Source: a virus (Duplodnaviria; Heunggongvirae; Uroviricota; Caudoviricetes). Taken from it: a DNA stretch of 10,234 bases. The first letter of the stretch is position 1. The number at the start of each line of letters is the position of its first letter. Where the stretch lies: IMG/VR virus record IMGVR_UViG_2681813268_000007, one strand, 5' to 3'. Of the stretch, positions 1 to 10,234 are shown piece after piece. Position numbers and translations under genes: made by a program. The notes beneath the pieces were generated by a model. It was not told the DNA's origin, did no database searches, and saw only the letters and a list, made by a program, of their open reading frames with translations.

Positions 1-49
1 CCCCGTCAGTAGCTGAACAGGAGGGACAGCTGATAGAAACAGAAGCCAC
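1..49 (-). CDS. insA: IS1 InsA, N-terminal fragment only (start codon GTG at 49-47, runs off window)
   Basis: Minus-strand translation from 49 gives V/M-ASVSISCPSCSATDG, the InsA N-terminus. Confidence 0.7.
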   Translation of the reverse strand, partial: MASVSISCPSCSATDG

Positions 50-104
50 TGGAGCACCTCAAAAACACGATCATACACTAAATCAGTAAGTTGGCAGCAT
101 CACC
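1..104 (-). mobile_element. IS1 end (partial; element continues beyond window start), terminal inverted repeat at about 82-104
   Basis: Reverse complement of 1-104 matches the IS1 left end as I recall it (GGTGATGCTGCCAACTTACTGAT...GAGGTGCTCCAGTGGCTTCTGTTTCTATCAGCTGTCCCTCCTGTTCAGCTACTGACGGGG); one apparent mismatch near position 69 relative to my memory of the canonical sequence. Confidence 0.8.
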
Positions 105-155
105 TTTTGTCTCTATGTTGATATAACCGTTTGTACTTATAAACCTGGAGGCATC

Positions 156-368
156 GTGGAAAAAATAAAGAAACTATTTAGTAGTAAATACGCAGTCATA
201 CGTCGTGATGACCTGTCAGTTATAGTCGAAATGGATTACTTCCCTGAAACCAAAAAATCAATGATGTATCGTAATGGTCGAAAGGCAATTTTTTTACCGA
301 TGAGGGTAAGTGACATTATGGGAAATGATAAACTGCTGGATGAATTGCGAGTCAGAGCATCCTGTTAG
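156..368 (+). CDS. hypothetical small protein (70 aa), AT-rich moron-like ORF
   Basis: GTG start at 156 preceded by GGAGG (147-151); clean 70-codon frame; base composition visibly more AT-rich than neighbouring genes; no recognisable motif. Confidence 0.4.
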   Translation: MEKIKKLFSSKYAVIRRDDLSVIVEMDYFPETKKSMMYRNGRKAIFLPMRVSDIMGNDKLLDELRVRASC

Positions 369-392
369 TATTGGCATTAATTCTGGTATACT
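365..392 (+). promoter_or_regulatory. putative sigma70 promoter with extended -10 (TGgTATACT at 384-392; weak -35 TTAGTA at 365-370)
   Basis: Motif match only, read by eye; positioned about 50 bp upstream of the ATG at 440. Confidence 0.2.
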
Positions 393-439
393 ACATAACG
401 GGCTGAACACCCATTCTACTGCGCCAGCGGAGAACTACG

Positions 440-1039
440 ATGGCGCATATACAACTGATCAAACAAACCTCTTCCGGATTACTTCTCCCGGCGACGCCGG
501 AGAGTTGCGATTTTCTGCATCAAATCAAAACAGGTGAGTGGATACACGCAGACTTTAAGCGTGTGCGTAACTACGCATTCCACAAGCGTTTTTTCAAACT
601 CCTGCAACTGGGATTCGATTACTGGACTCCGGTCGGTGGGGCGATCACGCCTCGCGAACGAGAACTGCTGTCTGGTTTCGTTGATTACCTGTGCGAATCA
701 GTAGGTCGGGAACATACGCCAGCTCTGAGCGAAGCCGCAGAGCAATATCTGAATACAGTTGCGACACGCAGAACCCGGGATACGGCATTGCTAAAGTCGT
801 TTGAGGCTTTTCGCGAGTGGGTAACCATTCAGGCTGGATTTTACACCGAACATTTTTATCCGGACGGTAGCCGCGGGCGTCGGGCAAAATCCATCGCTTT
901 TGCGAATATGGACGAAACCGAGTTTCAGCAGGTTTATAAATCTGTTCTGAATGTGCTGTGGAACTGGATTCTGTTCCGTAAATTTTCCTCTCCGGAACAA
1001 GTCGAAAATGTGGCCGCGCAGCTGCTGGAGTTTGCGTAA
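440..1039 (+). CDS. conserved lambdoid nin-region protein of unknown function (DUF1367-like, 199 aa)
   Basis: ATG at 440 with GGAG 7 nt upstream; long clean ORF; stop overlaps next start (TAATG at 1037-1041); family name from memory, unverified. Confidence 0.6.
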   Translation: MAHIQLIKQTSSGLLLPATPESCDFLHQIKTGEWIHADFKRVRNYAFHKRFFKLLQLGFDYWTPVGGAITPRERELLSGFVDYLCESVGREHTPALSEAAEQYLNTVATRRTRDTALLKSFEAFREWVTIQAGFYTEHFYPDGSRGRRAKSIAFANMDETEFQQVYKSVLNVLWNWILFRKFSSPEQVENVAAQLLEFA

Positions 1040-1329
1040 TGGTGGATTTACGTAAAGCGGCGCGGGGGCAGATGTGCACCGTCAGAATTCCTGGCTACTG
1101 CAATCACGATCCGGAAACGTCTGTGCTGGCGCATTACCGACTGGCGGGAACGTGCGGAACAGCGATAAAGCCACACGATATGCAGGCAGCGATTGCCTGT
1201 AGCTCGTGCCACGATTTAATCGACGGGCGGGTAAAAACCAGCGATTACACCAAAGAAGAATTACGCCTGATGCATGCAGAAGGTGTTTTTCGCACACAAG
1301 AAATCTGGAGAAAGGAGGGATATTTATGA
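1039..1329 (+). CDS. ybcO: YbcO-like protein (DUF1364, putative zinc-binding nuclease, 96 aa)
   Basis: 96-aa product MVDLRKAARG...CTVRIPGYCNHDPETSVLAH...IACSSCHDLIDGR resembles DLP12 YbcO as I recall it, including its Cys/His pattern; translationally coupled on both sides. Confidence 0.7.
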   Translation: MVDLRKAARGQMCTVRIPGYCNHDPETSVLAHYRLAGTCGTAIKPHDMQAAIACSSCHDLIDGRVKTSDYTKEELRLMHAEGVFRTQEIWRKEGYL

Positions 1330-1880
1330 TTTACCCAACGAATACAGGAAAAAGCGGAGAACACCTTCGTCTCACCACGCTGGAAAGTGTCTGGATTCAG
1401 GGAAAACTACGTATGTGGGGGCGCTGGTCGTATATTGGTGGCGGTAAGACGGGGAATATGTTTAACCTGATGTTGACCTCTAAAAAGCTGACAAAAACGG
1501 CAATTAACGAGGCGCTCCGGAGGATGAAAAAAGCAGGTCTGAACAAGTCTGAACTTGAGGCTTTTTTGCGGGATATGATTAACGGTAAGCAAAAGAGCTG
1601 GCTGGCGCATTGTACTGATGCAGAGGCGTTATGTATTGATCGGGTCATAAGTGAGGTGCTGGCAGAGCATCCAGGATTGATTAGCGTCCTTCGGCAACGG
1701 TATGAGGGGCGGGGGATGACCAAACGCAAAATGGCTGAACTGCTGAATGATGCACACCCGAAATGGAGTTTAAGAACCTGTGAAAGACGCATTGAGCATT
1801 GGCTAAAGGTGGCAGAATTTATTTTGTACAAACCAATGGTTATGGCTTTTGGTATAGAGAAAAAAGTTATTGCTTTTTGA
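1326..1880 (+). CDS. putative late-gene antiterminator (Q-like, phage-82/QuuQ-type), 184 aa
   Basis: ATG at 1326 with AGGAGGGA upstream and ATGA overlap with ybcO-like stop; last gene before a strong terminator and the late region; N-terminal LRMWGRW resembles the LERWGAW motif I recall in QuuQ-type Q proteins. Assignment is positional plus weak motif. Confidence 0.5.
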   Translation: MIYPTNTGKSGEHLRLTTLESVWIQGKLRMWGRWSYIGGGKTGNMFNLMLTSKKLTKTAINEALRRMKKAGLNKSELEAFLRDMINGKQKSWLAHCTDAEALCIDRVISEVLAEHPGLISVLRQRYEGRGMTKRKMAELLNDAHPKWSLRTCERRIEHWLKVAEFILYKPMVMAFGIEKKVIAF

Positions 1881-1957
1881 CGTAAAAACTGCTTCAATTC
1901 TTGTACGCTTCGCAAAGCTGTACCGCGAGGCGAATAGCAGACATGGACATTTGAAAG

Positions 1958-1983
1958 AGCCCGCTTTATGCGGGTTTTTTTAT
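1958..1983 (+). terminator. rho-independent terminator (tR'-like) downstream of Q-like gene
   Basis: Stem AGCCCGC/GCGGGTT (1958-1964 with 1970-1976) with a 5-nt loop, followed by a T-run through 1981. Confidence 0.7.
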
Positions 1984-2069
1984 ACCTGAAAAACGGCACA
2001 GGACGTTAAACGTGCTGGTGGTCAGATGAGTTTGCAGATGTGATGACATATGGTTATTATTCTGCCTCC

Positions 2070-2146
2070 GGCCCTTTAGCTCAGTTGGTCAGAGCGAGCG
2101 ACTCATAATCGCCAGGTCGCTGGTTCAAGTCCAGCAAGGGCCACCA
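2070..2146 (+). tRNA. tRNA-Ile2 (anticodon CAU, lysidine type; formally could read as Met), 77 nt with encoded CCA
   Basis: Cloverleaf: acceptor GGCCCTT/AAGGGCC, D-stem GCTC/GAGC, anticodon loop CTCATAA, T-arm GGTCGCTGGTTCAAGTCCAGC; close to E. coli ileX as recalled. Confidence 0.85.
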
Positions 2147-2147
2147 A

Positions 2148-2224
2148 CCACCACTAGCTCATCCGGATAGAGCATCAACCTTCTAAGTTGACGGTGCGAG
2201 GTTCGAGTCCTCGGTGGTGGGCCA
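2148..2224 (+). tRNA. tRNA-Arg (anticodon UCU, reads AGA/AGG)
   Basis: Acceptor CCACCAC/GTGGTGG, D-stem GCTC/GAGC, anticodon stem TCAAC/GTTGA with loop CTTCTAA, T-stem CGAGG/CCTCG with TTCGAGT loop, G73 and CCA. Confidence 0.85.
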
Positions 2225-2226
2225 GC

Positions 2227-2302
<76 letters not shown>

Positions 2303-2305
2303 TAT

Positions 2306-2380
<75 letters not shown>

Positions 2381-2386
2381 GTCAGA

Positions 2387-2432
2387 GTCTTTCAGTCTGC
2401 GATGATGGGAAATCCCGGAGTGACTGAAAGAC
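2387..2432. repeat. perfect 11-bp inverted repeat (GTCTTTCAGTC / GACTGAAAGAC) with 24-nt spacer
   Basis: Direct inspection; arms at 2387-2397 and 2422-2432. Confidence 0.8.
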
Positions 2433-2439
2433 GTTTAAG

Positions 2440-2512
2440 TTATGAATGATCGCCTTTTTTTGCAAAATTGCTGTGCAGAAATACTAACCTTCGGGCGTGC
2501 GATCATTCATAA
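2440..2512. repeat. perfect 14-bp inverted repeat (TTATGAATGATCGC / GCGATCATTCATAA) with 45-nt spacer
   Basis: Direct inspection; arms at 2440-2453 and 2499-2512. Confidence 0.8.
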
Positions 2513-2605
2513 GCACTCTGCTTTTATTCCGATTAACTGTGGGTGGTTTGTTGGATAGAGTGTGAGGTGTACTGGCAATAGCGGACACTACCATTTGTTC
2601 TTTTT

Positions 2606-3424
2606 TTAAGCAGCCATCTGATGATATTTTTCCCTGAAGGCTGCCGGGGAGATATTCCCCAGACGAGAGTGACGACGCTGACGATTGTAGAAAATCTCAA
2701 TGTATTCCCGTATTACTGAGATGGCTTCATCCCGGTTATTAAAACGATAGTGGCTCAGGCTCTCATTTTTCAGCGTTCCCCAGAAGCTTTCCATCGGAGC
2801 GTTGTCGTAACAGTTACCTTTACGCGACATTGATGTTTTCAGACCAGACTGCTCCTGTATGACCCGGTAATCGTATGCGCAGTACTGTGAACCTCGATCA
2901 GAGTGGTGGATTAGCCCGGCAGGTGGGCGCTGGCTCCTGAGCGCCATAAACAGGGCTTTACCTGTCAGCTCTTTTGTCATGCGCTCTCCCATGGCGTAGC
3001 CGACAATTTCGCACGTATAAACATCTTTGATGCCAGCGAGGTACAACCATCCCTCCTGTGTGGCAACATACGTCAGGTCCGCCACCCAGACCTGATTTGG
3101 TGCTGTAGGAGCGAACGTCTGGTTCAGCAGATTTGGCGCAACTGGCAGATTGTGGTTCGAGTTCGTAGTCGCTCTGAACTTGCGTTTCTGCTTACAGCGT
3201 AGCCTTAGCTCCTTACGAAGACGTGCCAGTCGGTCACGACCAACGATGATGCCATTCTCTGCCAGCTCCGTCTGGAGCCGCCGGGTTCCATATGTTTCGC
3301 GAGTGCGGATATGTGCCACCTTAATCTCCAGTTTTAGCCGCTCATCACTTTGTTTTCTGTCTGAGGGTTCATGCTGTACCCAGTTGTAATAACCGCTCCT
3401 GGATACACCAAATACCTGACACAT
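2606..3424 (-). CDS. IS3-family transposase OrfB (DDE catalytic domain); in vivo made as OrfAB fusion by -1 frameshift, so the true frame extends upstream to about 3510
   Basis: 272-aa ORF with IS3-type OrfB sequence (MCQVFGVSRSGYYNW..., ending ...YDNAPMESFWGTLKNE...GNISPAAF); the -1 frame upstream of its Met reads SNSVFCTGVAEKYALIEQWRQQFPIEA, continuous with it. Confidence 0.85.
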   Translation of the reverse strand: MCQVFGVSRSGYYNWVQHEPSDRKQSDERLKLEIKVAHIRTRETYGTRRLQTELAENGIIVGRDRLARLRKELRLRCKQKRKFRATTNSNHNLPVAPNLLNQTFAPTAPNQVWVADLTYVATQEGWLYLAGIKDVYTCEIVGYAMGERMTKELTGKALFMALRSQRPPAGLIHHSDRGSQYCAYDYRVIQEQSGLKTSMSRKGNCYDNAPMESFWGTLKNESLSHYRFNNRDEAISVIREYIEIFYNRQRRHSRLGNISPAAFREKYHQMAA

Positions 3425-3459
3425 CGCTTCAATGGGAAATTGTTGTCGCCATTGTTCGA

Positions 3460-3762
3460 TTAACGCGTATTTTTCAGCGACTCCTGTGCAAAATACGCTG
3501 TTGCTTTTTTTAATATATCTCGCTCAAGGCGAGCTTCATTTAACGCCTTACGCAGTTGCAGAATTTCAGATTCCAGTTCAGCCACCGTGCGGGAACCAGG
3601 AGTACCGAGCCCTTTTCTGGCGGCGGTAACCCATTGTCCTAAAGTGCCTTCAGGAAGAGATAATCGGGAAGCGCCTTCACTGATCGAAAGTTGATTTTCA
3701 AGAACCGTTCTGACAGCTTCGGCTTTGAACTCTTTAGAGTAACGTTGGGTTTTTCTGCTCAT
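3460..3762 (-). CDS. IS3-family transposase OrfA (helix-turn-helix / leucine-zipper subunit), 100 aa
   Basis: MSRKTQRYSKEFKAEAVRTVLENQ... is typical IS3/IS600 OrfA; ATG at 3762 with GGAG-type RBS on the minus strand. Confidence 0.85.
   Translation of the reverse strand: MSRKTQRYSKEFKAEAVRTVLENQLSISEGASRLSLPEGTLGQWVTAARKGLGTPGSRTVAELESEILQLRKALNEARLERDILKKATAYFAQESLKNTR
3505..3511 (-). other. programmed -1 ribosomal frameshift slippery site (A7 run followed by G on the minus strand) joining OrfA to OrfB
   Basis: Plus-strand T7 at 3505-3511; OrfA zero-frame reads TTA AAA AAA GCA; OrfB-like sequence continues in the -1 frame. Confidence 0.7.
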
Positions 3763-3826
3763 TATTAGCTCCTTCTGATGCCATTCTATTTCAGGAAGGA
3801 GTGTCCGTTAAACTCAGGCTACCTCA

Positions 3827-3837
3827 NNNNNNNNNNN
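3827..3837. other. assembly gap (11 N) abutting the last base of the IS600-like element
   Basis: Run of n characters in the sequence. Confidence 0.95.
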
Positions 3838-3921
3838 CTGAAAAACGGCACAGGACGTTAAACGTGCTGGTGGTCAGATGAGTTTGCAGATGTGATGACA
3901 TATGGTTATTATTCTGCCTCC

Positions 3922-3998
3922 GGCCCTTTAGCTCAGTTGGTCAGAGCGAGCGACTCATAATCGCCAGGTCGCTGGTTCAAGTCCAGCAAGGGCCACCA
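3922..3998 (+). tRNA. tRNA-Ile2 (CAU), second copy
   Basis: Identical to 2070-2146. Confidence 0.85.
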
Positions 3999-3999
3999 A

Positions 4000-4076
4000 C
4001 CACCACTAGCTCATCCGGATAGAGCATCAACCTTCTAAGTTGACGGTGCGAGGTTCGAGTCCTCGGTGGTGGGCCA
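4000..4076 (+). tRNA. tRNA-Arg (UCU), second copy
   Basis: Identical to 2148-2224. Confidence 0.85.
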
Positions 4077-4078
4077 GC

Positions 4079-4154
<76 letters not shown>

Positions 4155-4157
4155 TAT

Positions 4158-4232
<75 letters not shown>

Positions 4233-4846
4233 GCGAGATTTGAGACGAAGGTTGTTATTTGCACTGACACAATATTGTGTGGGAATGTCTGACTCCTTAC
4301 CATCTCCTGTTCTGTGATGTTGTTTTGTTGCAGTTCCAGTGCTCTTTTTTCAGCACCAGAATGGTGCATTGTCGGTCAGGTTACGTAGTGAACCTCTGGC
4401 AGGGGACTGATGATTCATCATTCTGGTGTTGTAAATATCTCTTCGGACAACTTACAAAATATTCTAAGCAAACCCCGGGAACACACTCTTAACTGCCTTG
4501 GCTGGCGGTTTTTTGTACAGCGCTCGGTATGTGTGAGCTGGAAATCAGATTTTGCATGGACTGGAATCATGCTGTTATTTAGGGGCGAAGAACTGGCTTT
4601 TTCTTCCGCCTTCTCACCAGTAACGATTAGAAAAATAATGAAATGCCCCCCTCCGGGGAGGAGGACCGTAGAAAAAAGGACCCGCCAGCAAAAACATTGG
4701 GGATGAACAGCTTTCGCTACTCAGATTGCTGGCGGGTAAAGTTCCTCATGAATTAAGAATGCTACGCGATCTTTTTTAATGGAAATGAAAATTATTGTCA
4801 ATTAGTCGTGCGTGTTTTTTCATACAATATTGGTAAAGGTGATTCA

Positions 4847-4881
4847 GGCCATCAGAGTTTTGCTGATGGCCTTTTTTCTTT
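4847..4881 (+). terminator. rho-independent terminator about 30 bp upstream of holin gene
   Basis: Perfect 9-bp stem GGCCATCAG/CTGATGGCC (4847-4855 with 4863-4871), 7-nt loop, then TTTTTTCTTT. Confidence 0.75.
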
Positions 4882-4912
4882 CCGATAGCACAGGTCTGTC
4901 GGGGGGCGGGAT

Positions 4913-5128
4913 ATGTATCAGATGGAAAAAATATCAACAGGCATTGCCTACGGCACCTCCGCCGGCAGTGCCGGCTACTGGTTTTTGCAGTGGTTGGATC
5001 AGGTCAGTCCATCACAGTGGGCTGCGATTGGTGTGCTGGGAAGTCTGCTTCTGGGGCTTCTGACTTATCTGACAAATCTGTATTTCAAAATAAGAGAAGA
5101 CAAGCGTAAGGCTGCGAGAGGTGAATAA
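4913..5128 (+). CDS. S: phage-21-type pinholin S (71 aa) with dual-start motif (Met1 and Met4: antiholin and holin forms)
   Basis: [28 protein letters not shown]...[13 protein letters not shown] matches S21 as recalled; two hydrophobic segments; stop overlaps R start (TAATG at 5126-5130). Confidence 0.9.
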
Positions 5129-5625
5129 TGTCGCCATCATTACGCAAGGCTGTTGCAGCTGCTATTGGTGGTGGGGCTGTTGCTATAGCATCTGTGTTAA
5201 TCACTGGCCCAGGTGGTAACGATGGTCTGGAAGGTGTCAGCTACATACCATACAAAGATATCATTGGTGTATGGACTGTATGTCACGGACACACCGGAAA
5301 AGACATCATGCTCGGTAAAACGTATACCGAAGCAGAATGCAAAGCCCTCCTGAATAAAGACCTTGCCACTGTCGCCAGACAAATTAACCCGTACATCAAA
5401 GTCGATATACCGGAAACAACGCGCGGCGCTCTTTACTCGTTCGTTTACAACGTGGGCGCTGGCAATTTCAGAACATCGACGCTTCTTCGCAAAATAAACC
5501 AGGGCGATATCAAAGGCGCATGTGACCAGCTACGTCGCTGGACATATGCTGGCGGTAAGCAATGGAAAGGGCTGATGACCCGTCGTGAGATTGAGCGTGA
5601 AGTCTGTTTGTGGGGGCAGCAATGA
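5128..5625 (+). CDS. R: SAR endolysin (phage-21 R-type lysozyme with N-terminal signal-anchor-release domain), 165 aa
   Basis: N-terminal Gly/Ala-rich weakly hydrophobic SAR segment ([20 protein letters not shown]) followed by a lysozyme-like catalytic region (GLEG...YKD...WTVCHGHTG); coupled to S and Rz. Confidence 0.9.
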
Positions 5626-6086
5626 GCAGAGTCACCGCGATTATCTCCGCTCTGGTTATCTGCATCATCGTCCGCCTGTCATGGGCTGTTAATCATTACC
5701 GTGATAACGCCATTACCTACAAAGAGCAGCGCGACAAAAACGCAAGAGAACTGAAGCTGGCGAACGCAACCATTACTGACATGCAGCAGAGACAGCGTGA
5801 TGTTAATGCACTCGATGCTAAATACACGAAGGAGTTAGCTGATGCGAAAGCTGAAAATGAAACTCTGCGCGCTGATGTTGCCGCTGGTCGTCGTCGGTTG
5901 CACATCAAAGCAGTCTGTCAGTCAGTGCGTGAAGCCACCACCGCCTCCGGCGTGGATAATGCAACCAGCCCCCGACTGGCAGACACCGCTGAACGGGATT
6001 ATTTCACCCTCAGAGAGCGGCTGATGACGATGCAGATGCAACTGGAAGGGGCACAGGAGTATATCCGCACTCAGTGCATTAAGTAG
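5622..6086 (+). CDS. Rz: Rz i-spanin (inner-membrane spanin subunit)
   Basis: ATG at 5622 overlaps R stop (ATGA); N-terminal TM segment ([14 protein letters not shown]) then coiled-coil-like charged region; an alternative GTG start at 5610 is possible. Confidence 0.85.
5842..6024 (+). CDS. Rz1: Rz1 o-spanin (outer-membrane lipoprotein), embedded in the +1 frame within Rz
   Basis: Signal peptide with lipobox (LVVVGC), proline-rich stretch PPPPP; GGAG 7 nt upstream of ATG at 5842; lies wholly inside Rz in a different frame. Confidence 0.8.
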
Positions 6087-6128
6087 CCTTTTTATCGTGG
6101 TAAACATTTCGCAGGGTATGAGGTATTT

Positions 6129-6479
6129 ATGCCATCACTAATCCCACGTGCCTGCCGTAAGCGTGGATGTGCAGGTACAACCACAGACAGTTCGGGTTAC
6201 TGCGATAAACATCGCGGTGAAGGCTGGGTGCAGCACCAGCGCGGACTGAGCCGCCACCAGCGTGGCTATGGCTCAAAATGGACGGTGATTCGTGCCCGTA
6301 TTCTGAAGCGCGATAAAGGTCTGTGTCAGTTGTGTCTGCGTGTCGGTGTGGTGAGCGAGGCGAAAACCGTCGACCACATCATCCCGAAAGCGCATGGCGG
6401 AACAGACGCAGACAGCAACCTGCAGAGTCTGTGCTGGCCCTGCCATAAAGCGAAAACAGCGCGCGAACGAATCCGGTGA
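6129..6479 (+). CDS. HNH endonuclease (phage packaging-associated), 116 aa
   Basis: Cys-rich N-terminus (CRKRGCAG...CDKH) and HNH core (DHIIPKAHGG...N...LCWPCH); located immediately upstream of terminase genes. Confidence 0.85.
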   Translation: MPSLIPRACRKRGCAGTTTDSSGYCDKHRGEGWVQHQRGLSRHQRGYGSKWTVIRARILKRDKGLCQLCLRVGVVSEAKTVDHIIPKAHGGTDADSNLQSLCWPCHKAKTARERIR

Positions 6480-6501
6480 TAATTATTCTCACTTGTAGGG
6501 A

Positions 6502-6562
6502 GGGGCGGGGCAAATCCCTGTGACCTGACGTCTTCCGGACTGCCCGCCCCATCGTTTTTTTA
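6502..6562 (+). terminator. GC-rich imperfect hairpin (GGGGCGGGGCA ... TGCCCGCCCC) followed by a T7 tract; candidate terminator and/or part of the cos region
   Basis: About 10-bp stem with one bulge, 28-nt loop, then ATCGTTTTTTTA; sits between HNH and terS. Confidence 0.45.
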
Positions 6563-6600
6563 TACCCGCGAAAAATGAAATTTAACCAGGAGTGCCGCAT

Positions 6601-7095
6601 ATGGCTGGAACGGCGGGGCGTTCCGGGCGTCGCCCCAAGCCAACGGCGCGCAAGGCGCTGGCCGGAAACCCCGGCAAGCGAGCCCTGAACAAAGATGAAC
6701 CTGTTTTTACGCCCATCAAAGGTGTTGAGCCACCAGAGTGGTTCGCTGAAGAAGATCTCCCTCTCGCCACGATCATGTGGCAACTGACAACCAAAGAACT
6801 CTGCGGTCAGGGCCTGCTGTGCGTGACTGACCTGGCGGTACTTGAGCGGTGGTGCGTGGCCTATGAGTTCTGGCGACGTGCCGTGAAAAATATTGCCATA
6901 CAGGGCAACACCATCACCGGTGCAATGGGCGGCAGGGTCAAAAATCCGGAGCTGACCGCCAAAAAAGAACAGGAGTCCGAGATGAGCAGCACGGGGGCAA
7001 TGCTCGGACTCGACCCCAGCAGCCGCCAGCGTCTGATTGGCCTGGCGGGGCAGAAGAAAGCCACTAACCCGTTTCTGAAAATTATCGAATCATGA
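6601..7095 (+). CDS. terminase small subunit (P27/HK97-type), about 164 aa
   Basis: ATG at 6601 with AGGAG (6586-6590) upstream (in-frame GTG at 6592 is the alternative); basic N-terminus; product resembles P27-family TerS as recalled; ATGA overlap with terL. Confidence 0.8.
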
Positions 7096-8825
7096 GCCGG
7101 AAATCTTACCCCAACGTAAATGCTGCAAATCAGTATGCCCGGGATGTCGTGCGCGGAAAGATTGTTGCCTGCCAGTTTGTGATTCAGGCCTGCCAGCGCC
7201 ATCTTGATGACCTGATGGCGGAAAAAAGTAAGTCGTTTCGTTACCGCTTCGACAAGGACCTGGCTGAACGGGCCGCGAAATTTATTCAGCTGTTGCCGCA
7301 CACCAAGGGGGAGTGGGCATTCAAACGGATGCCCATCACGCTGGAGCCGTGGCAGCTATTTGTGATCTGCTGTGCGTTTGGCTGGGTCAATAAAGGCACC
7401 CGGTTGCGCCGCTTCCGGGAGGTGTACACCGAAATCCCCCGTAAGAACGGCAAATCAGCAATCTCTGCCGGTGTTGCCCTGTATTGTTTTGCCTGTGATA
7501 ACGAGTTTGGCGCGGAAGTGTATTCCGGTGCCACGACAGAGAAACAGGCGTGGGAAGTCTTTCGCCCGGCGCGACTGATGTGTAAACGCACACCCATGCT
7601 GACGGAAGCGTTCGGGATTGAGGTTAACGCCTCAAACATGAACCGTCCGGAGGATGGCGCGCGGTTTGAACCGCTGATCGGCAACCCAGGTGATGGTTCA
7701 TCACCCCACTGTGCCGTGGTTGATGAATATCACGAGCATGCCACCGATGCGCTTTATACCACAATGCTTACCGGGATGGGGGCGCGACGTCAGCCACTGA
7801 TGTGGGCCATCACCACCGCCGGGTACAACATTGAGGGGCCGTGCTACGACAAGCGGCGGGAAGTCATCGAGATGCTCAACGGCTCGGTGCCTAACGATGA
7901 ACTGTTCGGGATCATCTATACCGTTGATGAAGGTGACGACTGGACCGGCCCGCAGGTGCTGGAAAAAGCCAATCCAAATATTGGCGTGTCGGTTTATCGC
8001 GAATTTTTGTTAAGTCAGCAGCAGCGTGCGAAAAATAACGCCCGTCTGGCAAACGTCTTTAAAACAAAACACCTCAATATCTGGGTGTCGGCGCGTTCGG
8101 CGTATTTCAACTTGGTGAGCTGGCAGAGCTGCGAGGATAAATCACTGACCCTTGAGCAGTTCGAGGGGCAGCCGTGCATTCTGGCCTTTGACCTGGCGCG
8201 TAAGCTGGATATGAACAGCATGGCGCGACTTTATACCCGCGAGATTGACGGTAAAACGCATTACTACAGTGTGGCCCCGCGTTTCTGGGTACCGTATGAC
8301 ACGGTGTACAGCGTCGAGAAAAATGAAGATCGACGGACAGCCGAACGCTTTCAGAAATGGGTGGAAATGGGCGTTCTGGCCGTTACCGATGGTGCGGAGG
8401 TGGATTATCGCTACATCCTCGAGGAGGCCAAAGCGGCGAACAAAATCAGCCCGGTCAGTGAGTCACCCATCGACCCCTTCGGGGCGACCGGGTTGTCACA
8501 TGACCTTGCTGATGAAGACCTGAATCCCGTCACTATCGTCCAGAACTTCACCAATATGTCCGATCCGATGAAAGAGCTGGAAGCAGCGATTGAATCGGGA
8601 CGTTTTCATCATGACGGCAATCCCATCATGACCTGGTGTATCGGCAACGTGGTCGGCAAAAACATGCCGGGTAACGATGATGTGGTGAAACCCGTCAAAG
8701 AGCAGGCGGAAAACAAAATCGATGGTGCAGTTGCGCTGATTATGGCGGTTGGCAGAGCCATGCTGTACGAGAAAGAAGACACGCTGTCTGACCACATTGA
8801 GTCCTACGGGATCCGCTCGCTTTAA
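7092..8825 (+). CDS. terminase large subunit (ATPase plus nuclease), 577 aa
   Basis: Long ORF with Walker-A-like motif (PRKNGKS), acidic nuclease-type motifs downstream; coupled to terS. Confidence 0.9.
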
Positions 8826-8836
8826 CTGAGGTAATT

Positions 8837-9019
8837 ATGATCATGCTGATTCTCGCGCCTCTGGTGGGCGTGCTGGGTGCGCTTTTGCTGGCGTATGGTG
8901 CCTGGCTGATTTATCCCCCGGCGGGTTTTGTTGTTGCCGGGGCGCTGTGCCTGTTCTGGTCGTGGCTGGTGGCGCGATATCTCGACCGTACACGGCAGTC
9001 TGTCGGCGGAGGTAAATAG
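8837..9019 (+). CDS. small hydrophobic protein (60 aa, two predicted TM helices), unknown function
   Basis: ATG at 8837 with GAGGT 4 nt upstream; product [26 protein letters not shown]...[14 protein letters not shown] is strongly hydrophobic; its stop abuts the GTG I take as portal start. Confidence 0.45.
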
Positions 9020-10175
9020 TGTTCTTTTCGGGATTATTTCAACGAAAAAGCGATGTGCCGGTGACCACGCCAGCAGAACTGCTGATGCTATCGGGCTGTC
9101 ATACGACACCTATACCGGAAAGCGGATCAGTAGCCAGCGGGCCATGCGCCTGACGGCGGTCTATTCTTGCGTCAGGGTGCTGGCAGAGTCTGTTGGTATG
9201 CTGCCCTGCAGTCTCTACAAAATCAGCGGTACCCTGAAAACACGGGCGGTGGATGAACGACTGCATAAGTTGGTTTCGGCAAAACCTAATGGCTACATGA
9301 CACCGCAGGAATTCTGGGAGCTGGTTATTGTCTGCCTGTGTCTACGGGGGAATTTTTACGCCTACAAGGTAAAGGCACTGGGAGAAGTGGTGGAGCTTCT
9401 TCCGATAGATCCGGGCTGTGTGGAACCGAAGCTGAACAGCCAGTGGCAGCCGGTTTATCAGGTGACGTTTCCGGATGGTTCCGTGGATGTGTTGACCCAG
9501 AATGAAATCTGGCATGTGCGCACCCTGACGCTGGATGGACTTGTCGGGCTGAATCCCATTGCGTATGCGCGTGAGGCCATTTCACTGGCAGCGGCAACCG
9601 AGGAGCACGGTGCCAGGTTGTTTAGTAATGGTGCGGTGACATCCGGTGTGTTGCGTACGGAACAAAAGCTCACGCCGGATGCTTACGAGCGTCTGAAGAA
9701 AGATTTTGAGGAGTGTCACACGGGGCTTGGCAATGCTCACCGCCCGATGATTCTGGAAATGGGGCTGGACTGGAAGTCGATGGCGCTGAACGCCGAGGAC
9801 AGTCAGTTCCTGGAAACCCGCAAGTTTCAGCTGGAAGAAATCTGTCGTCTGTTCCGGGTGCCGTTGCACATGGTGCAGAACACCGATCGCGCCACCTTCA
9901 ACAATATCGAAGAGCTGGGGCTGGGATTTATCAACTATTCACTGGTGCCGTATCTGACCCGCATCGAACAGCGGATCAACACCGGACTGGTACGAAAAAG
10001 TAAGCAGGGCGTTTATTACGCCAAATTTAACGCCGGGGCGTTACTGCGCGGGGATATGAAGTCCCGTTTTGAAGCCTACGCCACCGGGATCAACTGGGGA
10101 ATTTACTCTTCCAATGACTGCCGCGACCTGGAAGATATGAATCCGCGTCCCGGTGGTGTAATGCCGATCAGTTAA
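9019..10175 (+). CDS. portal protein (HK97 family), with apparent frame disruption near 9079-9150: N-terminal 44 codons (GTG 9019 to stop 9153) in one frame, remainder (to 10175) in the adjacent frame; first in-frame ATG of the main frame is 9144
   Basis: Main frame contains the portal-like motif RAMRLTAVYSCVRVLAESVGMLP close to any possible N-terminus; GTG at 9019 has GGAGGT 5 nt upstream and encodes MFFSGLFQRKSDVPVTTPAEL; the span is not a multiple of 3. Confidence 0.7.
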
Positions 10176-10210
10176 GGATCAGTTGACCGATCCAGTGGCT
10201 GTGTAAGAAT

Positions 10211-10234
10211 CCGGAAACGCTCACTTGTTTCCGG
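10211..10234 (+). other. perfect 8-bp inverted repeat hairpin (CCGGAAAC / GTTTCCGG) after portal stop; context cut by window end
   Basis: Direct inspection. Confidence 0.4.

Follow-up and report, generated by a model that had tools for sequence, protein, structure and literature searches.

A complete insertion sequence occupies positions 2563–3826 of a Shigella sonnei draft scaffold, downstream of a gene for a Q-like antiterminator and a tRNA array and, as the record is written, upstream of a block of phage late genes. This raises the questions of what the element is, how it came to lie in this interval, and whether the late genes that follow it on the scaffold belong to the same prophage. 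The stretch analysed here (henceforth the window, 10,234 nucleotides) makes up the whole of public record CXEW01000162.1 (assembly GCA_001260755.1), and its scaffold is made up of two contigs, at positions 1–3826 and 3838–10234, with 11 N between them. Relatives of the left contig were found by looking up its Q-like protein (1326–1880) in public assemblies, which led to closed chromosomes, and relatives of the right contig by looking up its HNH protein (6129–6479), likewise in public assemblies. The fetched loci are referred to by L numbers where they need to be told apart.

Identity and anatomy of the element

The element is 1264 bp long, with its transposase on the minus strand, and matches at 1264 of 1264 nucleotides (100% identity) the copies annotated as 'IS3-like element IS600 family transposase' on S. 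sonnei plasmids. The reference copies at 100% include that of S. sonnei Ss046 pSS_046 (NC_007385.1), and 890 plasmid records have a match to window positions 2563–3826. IS600 of S. sonnei, which belongs to the IS3 group of the IS3 family, was reportedly described by Matsutani et al. in 1987. The sequence-only reading had named this a complete IS600-like element and had proposed a comparison with known IS600 and related IS3-family members as the check; the full-length identity to annotated IS600 copies bears the description out. The element is canonical IS600 itself, beyond merely IS600-like, and is structurally intact. It is without difference from the reference copies, and only its insertion site and the later changes to its flanks are specific to this copy.

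Two open reading frames on the minus strand give the only family matches in 2563–3826, and no cargo was found there. The first, orfA (3460–3762), encodes 100 amino acids with the Pfam domain HTH_Tnp_1 (E = 1.5e-20), and the second, orfB (2606–3424), encodes 272 amino acids counted from its first ATG and matches Pfam HTH_21, rve (E = 8.7e-26), rve_2 and rve_3. The DD(35)E catalytic core could be read from the translation of orfB, with the first aspartate in WVADLTY, the second in HSDRGSQY and the glutamate in APMESFW, the spacing from the second aspartate to the glutamate being 35 residues. An A7G slippery run on the minus strand (3504–3511), in phase 0 with orfA, is a predicted site of programmed −1 frameshifting, and a shift at this run would yield an OrfAB fusion of 385 amino acids, as long as the product that the public record gives for this gene. 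RefSeq likewise annotates a 'programmed frameshift' for IS600 in the E. coli locus L001.

The terminal inverted repeats lie at 2563–2589 (the orfB end, TGAGGTGTACTGGCAATAGCGGACACT) and 3800–3826 (the orfA end, which finishes in ...CCTCA at the very edge of the N gap) and match each other at 19 of 27 positions. Both termini open with TGAGGT and have GGACAC in common, giving the 5'-TG...CA-3' pattern. The earlier statement that orfA and orfB are intact and that both inverted repeats are present is thus upheld by the Pfam domains, the 385-residue fusion and the agreement between the ends. Identity and length, the orfA/orfB arrangement with its frameshift motif, the DD(35)E core and the TG...CA ends all place the element in the IS3 family; the 3-bp target-site duplication of the family is seen in relatives (L010, L033 and L037), the window's own right flank being behind the gap. 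Given the intact structure, the identity to other copies and the published recent activity of IS600 in S. sonnei, where it is among the five expanded insertion sequences with the highest recent activity (PMC7373316), this copy is putatively still able to transpose, by the copy-out, paste-in route via a circular intermediate.

Insertion site and its later history

The left contig is bounded by an IS1 end (1–104), which is 99% identical to IS1A in L003 and falls where closed genomes carry an IS1 gene. In those genomes the order of genes is dbpA-like, ttcA-like, a truncated integrase, IS600, IS1 and a few early genes, then a second IS1, followed by a 70-aa ORF, DUF1367, YbcO, the Q-like DUF1133 gene, the tRNAs and the IS600 of the window. 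Going by the Pfam content of the neighbours (DbpA, ATP_bind_3 and a truncated integrase), which is the one basis for this placement, the remnant that holds the left contig, here called prophage A, probably sits at the Rac/ttcA site. Its Q-like antiterminator (1326–1880, plus strand) matches Pfam DUF1133 (2e-107) and Phage_antitermQ (8e-07) as well as PHROG 753, 'anti-termination protein Q-like' (9e-80). A hairpin followed by a U run lies 3' of the gene (1952–1981, plus strand; −18.7 kcal/mol, z = −3.96 on folding of the stretch) and is a candidate intrinsic terminator of the tR' kind; it was not listed by a consensus terminator scan, and folding supported it.

A 412-bp module on the plus strand (1970–2381), which prophage A shares at 100% identity with the prophage of the right contig (prophage B, see below), contains four tRNAs, namely a CAU tRNA (Ile/Met), Arg-UCU, Thr-UGU and Gly-UCC; an Rfam scan of the window returned eight tRNAs and nothing else. 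The tRNA-Gly ends at 2380 and IS600 starts 181–182 bp downstream of the array, in agreement with the 181 bp given previously. The intervening sequence (2382–2562, plus strand) is prophage-specific and corresponds to the left part of the tRNA-to-holin spacer, the late-operon leader of prophage A; in uninterrupted relatives (L001 and L002) it runs on into the region upstream of the holin. Its last three nucleotides, at 2560–2562, are GTG, as had been noted for the left flank, and filled and empty sites in relatives identify this triplet as the left copy of a 3-bp target-site duplication.

The empty site, AGAGTG|CTTTCC, is found in the E. coli relatives L001 and L002 in the context ...GGATAGAGTG|CTTTCCTTACTG..., about 108 bp ahead of the gene for a class II holin. 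The corresponding filled site, AGAGTG|IS600|GTGCTTTCC, is found in CP061367.1 (L010), S. sonnei 53G (HE616528.1, L033) and CP060117.1 (L037), which have GTG on both sides of the element, followed by holin, lysozyme and Rz genes; the right junction of the simple insertion reads CCTCA|GTGCTTTCC, and the insertion point is about 110 bp upstream of prophage A's own holin. Because empty sites are present in the two E. coli loci and GTG-flanked filled sites in the three others, the original event is best described as a standard simple transposition into a phage spacer with duplication of GTG, by which IS600 entered a lambdoid prophage remnant in the leader of its late operon. Among the fetched loci, four further simple insertions of IS600 show 3-bp duplications too, the duplications listed being GTG, CTA, TGA and GAG. 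The prophage of E. coli FDAARGOS_943 (NZ_CP065615.1, L001) has a closely related Q/tRNA/holin module (96.6% identity) with an IS600 in its lysis region and a GTG duplication; this is an independent insertion, however, about 430 bp further downstream and inside the lysozyme gene, and the site equivalent to window position 2562 is empty. A nested origin, with IS600 entering an older IS600, was considered and rejected, as the left flank is phage spacer and the spacer of 53G-type genomes carries a perfect GTG duplication.

Closed genomes identical or nearly identical to the left contig have a different right flank. Window positions 1–3826 are 100% identical to L006 and L013, the latter being S. 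sonnei FDAARGOS_90 (CP014099.2; strain named in PMC5447701), and 99.95–99.97% identical to L005 and L009, the value for L005 being 99.95%. In the FDAARGOS_90 type the right end of IS600 abuts a truncated second IS600, which is followed by the 3' end of a tape-measure gene. The IS600-internal sequence at the right terminus starts at the equivalent of window position 3348 in L005, L007, L009 and L013 and of 3572 in L006; the truncated second IS600 is 482 bp long, and 255 bp in L006, and the right junctions read CCTCA|CTTTGTTTTC or CCTCA|TCCAGTTCAG. Beyond it lie the last 112 codons of the tape-measure gene (phrog_6747, 2e-67) and then the tail genes gpM, L, K, I, J and Lom, and this deleted type has lost the genes for lysis, packaging and the head, together with most of the tape-measure gene and any tail genes that stood ahead of it. 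Yet another right flank is seen in CP146298.2 (L034). The right-hand GTG was not found in L005, L006, L009, L013 or L034, in which the flank has been replaced.

The sequence-only reading had held that the absence of a 3-bp direct repeat would point to IS-mediated deletion or rearrangement and away from simple insertion. The closed genomes divide this alternative: those identical to the left contig lack the right GTG, but 53G-type genomes carry it on both sides. Since the IS end abuts a truncated IS600 and tail genes, with no right-hand GTG, in genomes identical to the left contig, an IS-associated deletion would have followed the simple insertion. In many S. sonnei genomes a later rearrangement has placed the right end against a truncated second IS600 in the tape-measure gene and removed the lysis, packaging and head genes.

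Which of these states the source isolate carries has to be judged from the left contig, and the deleted type is favoured because the contig is 100% identical to that type and is without IS2. In the 53G-type genomes L010, L033 and L037, an IS2 is nested in this IS600 at the point that corresponds to window position 3379, as it is in L007, whose right terminus runs into IS600-internal sequence. 53G and CP061367.1 share with the window the same IS1, Q-like gene, tRNA array and IS600 insertion point and differ in having the right GTG, their own holin, lysozyme and Rz genes and the nested IS2, whereas FDAARGOS_90 and CP104423.1 (L005) share with it positions 1–3826 at the identities given above and show the truncated IS600, the tape-measure 3' end and tail genes M to J, without a lysis cassette. 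That the isolate has nevertheless kept a simple insertion as in 53G, with GTG and the holin, lysozyme and Rz genes of prophage A at the right, seems improbable: precisely this arrangement, with an identical left junction, is seen in L010, L033 and L037, and an IS2-free draft sequence could stem from other IS600 copies, but the 53G-type genomes carry the IS2 and differ from the window at two positions in 1–3379, while L006 and L013, of the deleted type, match 1–3826 throughout and, like the window, are without IS2.

A related concern is the state of the element itself, since a short-read draft may give a consensus of copies, and the intactness of this copy in the isolate therefore rests on closed relatives. 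The left contig crosses the whole of a multi-copy element and halts exactly at its far terminus, and the same copy is broken by IS2 in the four genomes named above, as would be expected if the IS of the window were an assembly consensus of many IS600 copies and the true copy were truncated or interrupted. We regard this as quite unlikely, given that an uninterrupted full-length IS600 is present at the exact site in L005, L006, L009, L013 and L034, the copies of L006 and L013 being 100% identical to that of the window.

At least four sequences are joined exactly to the orfA-side terminus among closed S. sonnei genomes, namely GTG with the holin region, IS600-internal sequence from 3348, IS600-internal sequence from 3572, and an unrelated flank that leads into an inverted IS600. 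It is possible, though we hold it only tentatively, that breaks have recurred at this IS600 copy, the terminus on its orfA side having served again and again in intramolecular events mediated by the transposase. The junction of the terminus with IS600-internal sequence may have arisen in either of two ways, by intramolecular transposition into the second IS600 in the tape-measure gene (an adjacent deletion) or by homologous recombination with a third IS600 inserted in that second copy. We had considered terminus-precise junctions as proof of the copy's activity and dropped this argument, as recombination with an IS600-in-IS600 arrangement gives the same junction.

The scaffold gap and the second prophage

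The junction as scaffolded ends at the left in ...GGCTACCTCA and, beyond the 11 N (3827–3837), opens at the right with CTGAAAAACGGCAC, so that as a read signature the join would be CCTCA followed by CTGAAAAACGG within 30 nt. The right contig begins with a second copy of the tRNA module (3838–4233, plus strand), starting 16 nt inside the 412-bp repeat; positions 1986–2381 and 3838–4233 form an exact repeat of 396 nt (100% identity) that includes the four tRNA genes; past tRNA-Gly, at 2382 and 4234, all similarity between the copies ends. Because the right contig opens with this exact repeat of the tRNA array and then diverges, the sequence after the gap does not continue the sequence before it. 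The second exact copy directly after the gap had gone unrecorded in the earlier reading, and it changes the view of the context. The record shows holin, lysozyme, Rz, HNH, terminase and portal genes after the second array, and these late genes (4913–10175) are those of a second prophage, here prophage B. Its portal gene is truncated by an IS4 end (10158–10234) that is 100% identical to IS4 in L004, and an IS4 gene lies 3' of the portal in L018 and L019.

The two contigs could be located separately in a single closed chromosome. Window positions 3838–10234 are 99.97% identical to L017, with two SNPs at 5673 and 8379, and L017 and L005 belong to the same chromosome (CP104423.1), in which the left contig maps to about 1,986,541–1,990,366 and the right contig to about 924,651–931,047, in the same orientation and about 1.06 Mb apart. 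The exact terminase large subunit (TerL) protein was found only in this record and in one Logan contig, a restriction owed to the SNP at 8379; the Logan assembly of run ERR028703, apparently from the same sample, carries the identical terminase. Upstream of its tRNA array, prophage B carries DnaB and RusA, a Q of 128 aa from a different family and an ORF6N gene, and it has a terminator hairpin of its own; its identity with prophage A begins only at the equivalent of window position 1970, which delimits the 412-bp common module. The linkage across the gap, on which an effect of the IS on the late genes of the window had been made conditional, therefore fails, as those genes sit in a second prophage about 1.06 Mb away with another Q upstream.

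The join was also absent wherever it was sought. An IS600 right end was found within 1.5 kb upstream of the tRNA leader in none of the 22 loci carrying that leader, none of the 5426 complete E. coli genomes searched with a synthetic junction sequence had a place spanning both halves, and an exact-pattern scan for the junction in species-representative genomes (genome_contigs) gave no matches. The scaffold join is thus very probably false, uniting two unlinked prophage remnants, and we are almost as confident in the account as a whole, that is, an ordinary IS600 insertion in the prophage A remnant together with a scaffolding artefact at the gap.

It is hard to credit, by comparison, that the scaffold is correct and that a strain-specific rearrangement truly gives IS600 a tRNA array on either side, ahead of the holin-to-portal block, either by recombination between IS600 copies or by a new IS600 insertion just upstream of the prophage B array. 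The record was deposited in this form with a gap of only 11 N, rearrangement at IS copies is extensive in S. sonnei genomes, this very IS600 has at least four different right flanks among closed genomes, and 3.3 kb ahead of its tRNA array prophage B carries a further IS600, oriented the same way. However, the junction is absent from every closed genome or locus examined, and recombination with that IS600, which lies in dnaB of prophage B, would leave 3.3 kb before the tRNA array, compared to the approximately 11 nt of the scaffold. Further, the first base of the right contig falls 16 nt into the common repeat and not at a novel junction, and the last base of the left contig is the IS terminus itself; both gap edges are repeat boundaries and fit contig extensions that stalled there.

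A plausible origin of the false join lies in read pairs misplaced through the 412-bp repeat, followed by gap filling. The assembler would have had a single tRNA module to work with, that of the left contig, and forward reads of prophage B from the module would have been placed on that contig while their mates fell in the unique spacer from 4234 onward. The misplaced prophage B pairs would then have tied the two contigs together, and gap filling perhaps pushed each contig edge out to the point where reads diverge, which is a repeat boundary. The opposite read-pair geometry, in which pairs from prophage A have their forward read on the tRNA copy of the right contig, was tried and set aside, as its orientation and distance do not agree with the gap.

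Separation of the two remnants also alters how the signs of decay are read. The IS1 end at the start of the window and the truncated portal, which had been combined with the IS600 insertion as marks of a decaying prophage, are both real and the decay stands, but the IS1 end and the portal belong to two different remnants.

The late-operon slot and the meaning of the insertion

The insertion had further been described as lying between the antiterminator and the late genes. The position from the Q-like gene and tRNAs to the holin is confirmed by relatives, but the late genes in the window are those of prophage B. The additional suggestion that this is the slot which carries stx or other moron cargo in related phages agrees with phage 2851 (FM180578.1), in which the order Q, tRNA-Ile, Arg, Arg, stx2AB places stx2 at the same position. 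The window and phage 2851 are alike in Q, tRNA genes, cargo slot and lysis order, and their Ile/Arg tRNAs are 88% identical; more generally, window positions 2053–2224 are 88–90% identical to the Ile/Arg tRNAs of Stx2 phages. A Q-type antiterminator and a terminator hairpin lie upstream of the slot, and the tRNAs are homologues of the ones found ahead of stx. The window has no holin and lysis genes from the same prophage immediately after the IS, and only the 53G-type relatives have them there; a host-affecting cargo gene is not found, the family matches in 2563–3826 being confined to orfA and orfB. Unlike the Stx phages with their stx cargo, the slot of the window holds the IS only, and its Q is of a different family (DUF1133). 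In S. dysenteriae 1, IS600 has been described upstream of stx (PMC7819885), beside the same slot.

In the ancestral prophage the insertion moved the holin a further 1.26 kb away from the region of the Q-dependent late promoter and terminator, with the transposase gene antisense in between; the promoter and terminator region is placed upstream of the IS on the strength of the Q-like gene and the hairpin at 1952–1981. RNA polymerase modified by Q reads through terminators, so any polarity on late expression need not be complete. The effects to be expected are purely insertional, in that the element would disrupt the leader and would supply homology and an active end for later rearrangements. The consequence that can be demonstrated is structural: IS600 is a breakpoint at which the prophage was cut down.

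The finding is a combination of already-known biology, an ordinary IS600, with an assembly artefact. IS600 expansion and IS-driven decay of prophages and genomes in Shigella are well documented (PMC7373316), and the scientific weight of the locus is small. Its practical value is one of caution about a public draft scaffold that is chimeric and fuses two prophage remnants via a repeat. Inference of gene order across the N gap would mislead, suggesting an IS upstream of lysis and terminase genes and a tandem duplication of the tRNA array. The locus further shows that closed relatives allow a target-site duplication to be recovered where a gap conceals it. For the biology of S. sonnei prophages, if the nested terminus-precise junctions are adjacent deletions made by this copy and not products of RecA recombination with other IS600 copies, they would document how IS activity took apart a prophage late operon step by step in a single species.

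Variable flanks of one IS600 copy

Comparison of closed S. sonnei-type genomes revealed that at least four different sequences are joined exactly to the right terminus (equivalent to window position 3826) of one IS600 copy, the loci compared being L005 (the prophage A locus of CP104423.1), L006, L010 (CP061367.1), L013 (FDAARGOS_90), L033 (53G) and L034 (CP146298.2). Similarly, the more upstream IS600 of prophage A has a constant right flank (CTATGCAGCGCG) and left flanks of two kinds. We also observe an IS2 nested within the IS600 copy at a single position, equivalent to window 3379, in L007, L010, L033 and L037 (CP060117.1). These IS2-bearing genomes differ in the right flank of the IS600, which is of the deleted type (the right end abutting a truncated IS600 and the tape-measure 3' end) in L007 and of the simple-insertion type (GTG duplication and holin) in the other three. 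The shared IS2 position together with the differing flanks implies that recombination followed the insertion of IS2 or, alternatively, that IS2 inserted repeatedly at a single site.

A closely related prophage in L001 (E. coli FDAARGOS_943) has an independent IS600 at 9556-10819, within its lysozyme gene; this insertion too is flanked by a GTG duplication. A third IS600 copy, in L017 (the prophage B locus of CP104423.1), is directly preceded by ...GGTGA. Judging from these target sequences, a weak target preference of IS600 is possible.

The portal gene and IS4 end of the second prophage

In the second prophage, the portal gene (window 9019-10175) is doubly damaged. It carries a frameshift near 9085-9100, along with a GTG at the position of an ATG in the intact relative L026, and an IS4 at 10158 cuts off its 3' end. 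The resulting 343-aa remnant is likewise called in closed genomes. The right contig differs from CP104423.1 by only two SNPs, at 5673 and 8379, and because of the latter this sample is the only one in the protein index with this terminase large subunit sequence. Past the IS4 (beyond the position equivalent to window 10234), the chromosomal neighbors vary among the closed genomes L017-L025, viz., raiA-pheA-tyrA-aroF in L018 and L025, and IS2 followed by bamE-recN-nadK-grpE in L017, L019 and L021-L024. These differing neighbors suggest that this prophage end has undergone inversions or deletions mediated by IS elements.

A four-tRNA module common to two prophages

Copies of a four-tRNA module lie at window 1970-2381 in prophage A and 3838-4233 in prophage B. 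ARAGORN assigns its CAU-anticodon tRNA (2070-2146 and 3922-3998) to Met, and RefSeq labels the homologue in relatives tRNA-Ile; on the latter reading, it would be an ileX/ileZ-like, lysidine-dependent CAU tRNA, as in Stx phages. In the E. coli relatives L001 and L002, the annotation gives Val (71 nt), not Gly, for the fourth tRNA. Between the tRNAs and the holin, the second prophage has a 680-bp spacer (4234-4912), with a 98-aa ORF at 4410-4706 that has no PHROG match and, just upstream of the holin, a strong hairpin with a T run after it (4846-4872). The corresponding spacer in prophage A, of 290 bp, is not related to this one.

The 412-bp module is 100% identical between the two prophage remnants, which lie ~1.06 Mb apart on one S. 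sonnei chromosome (L005 and L017); their Q genes and the spacers downstream are unrelated. The sequence comparison suggests that the module was exchanged, or homogenized by gene conversion, between resident prophages.
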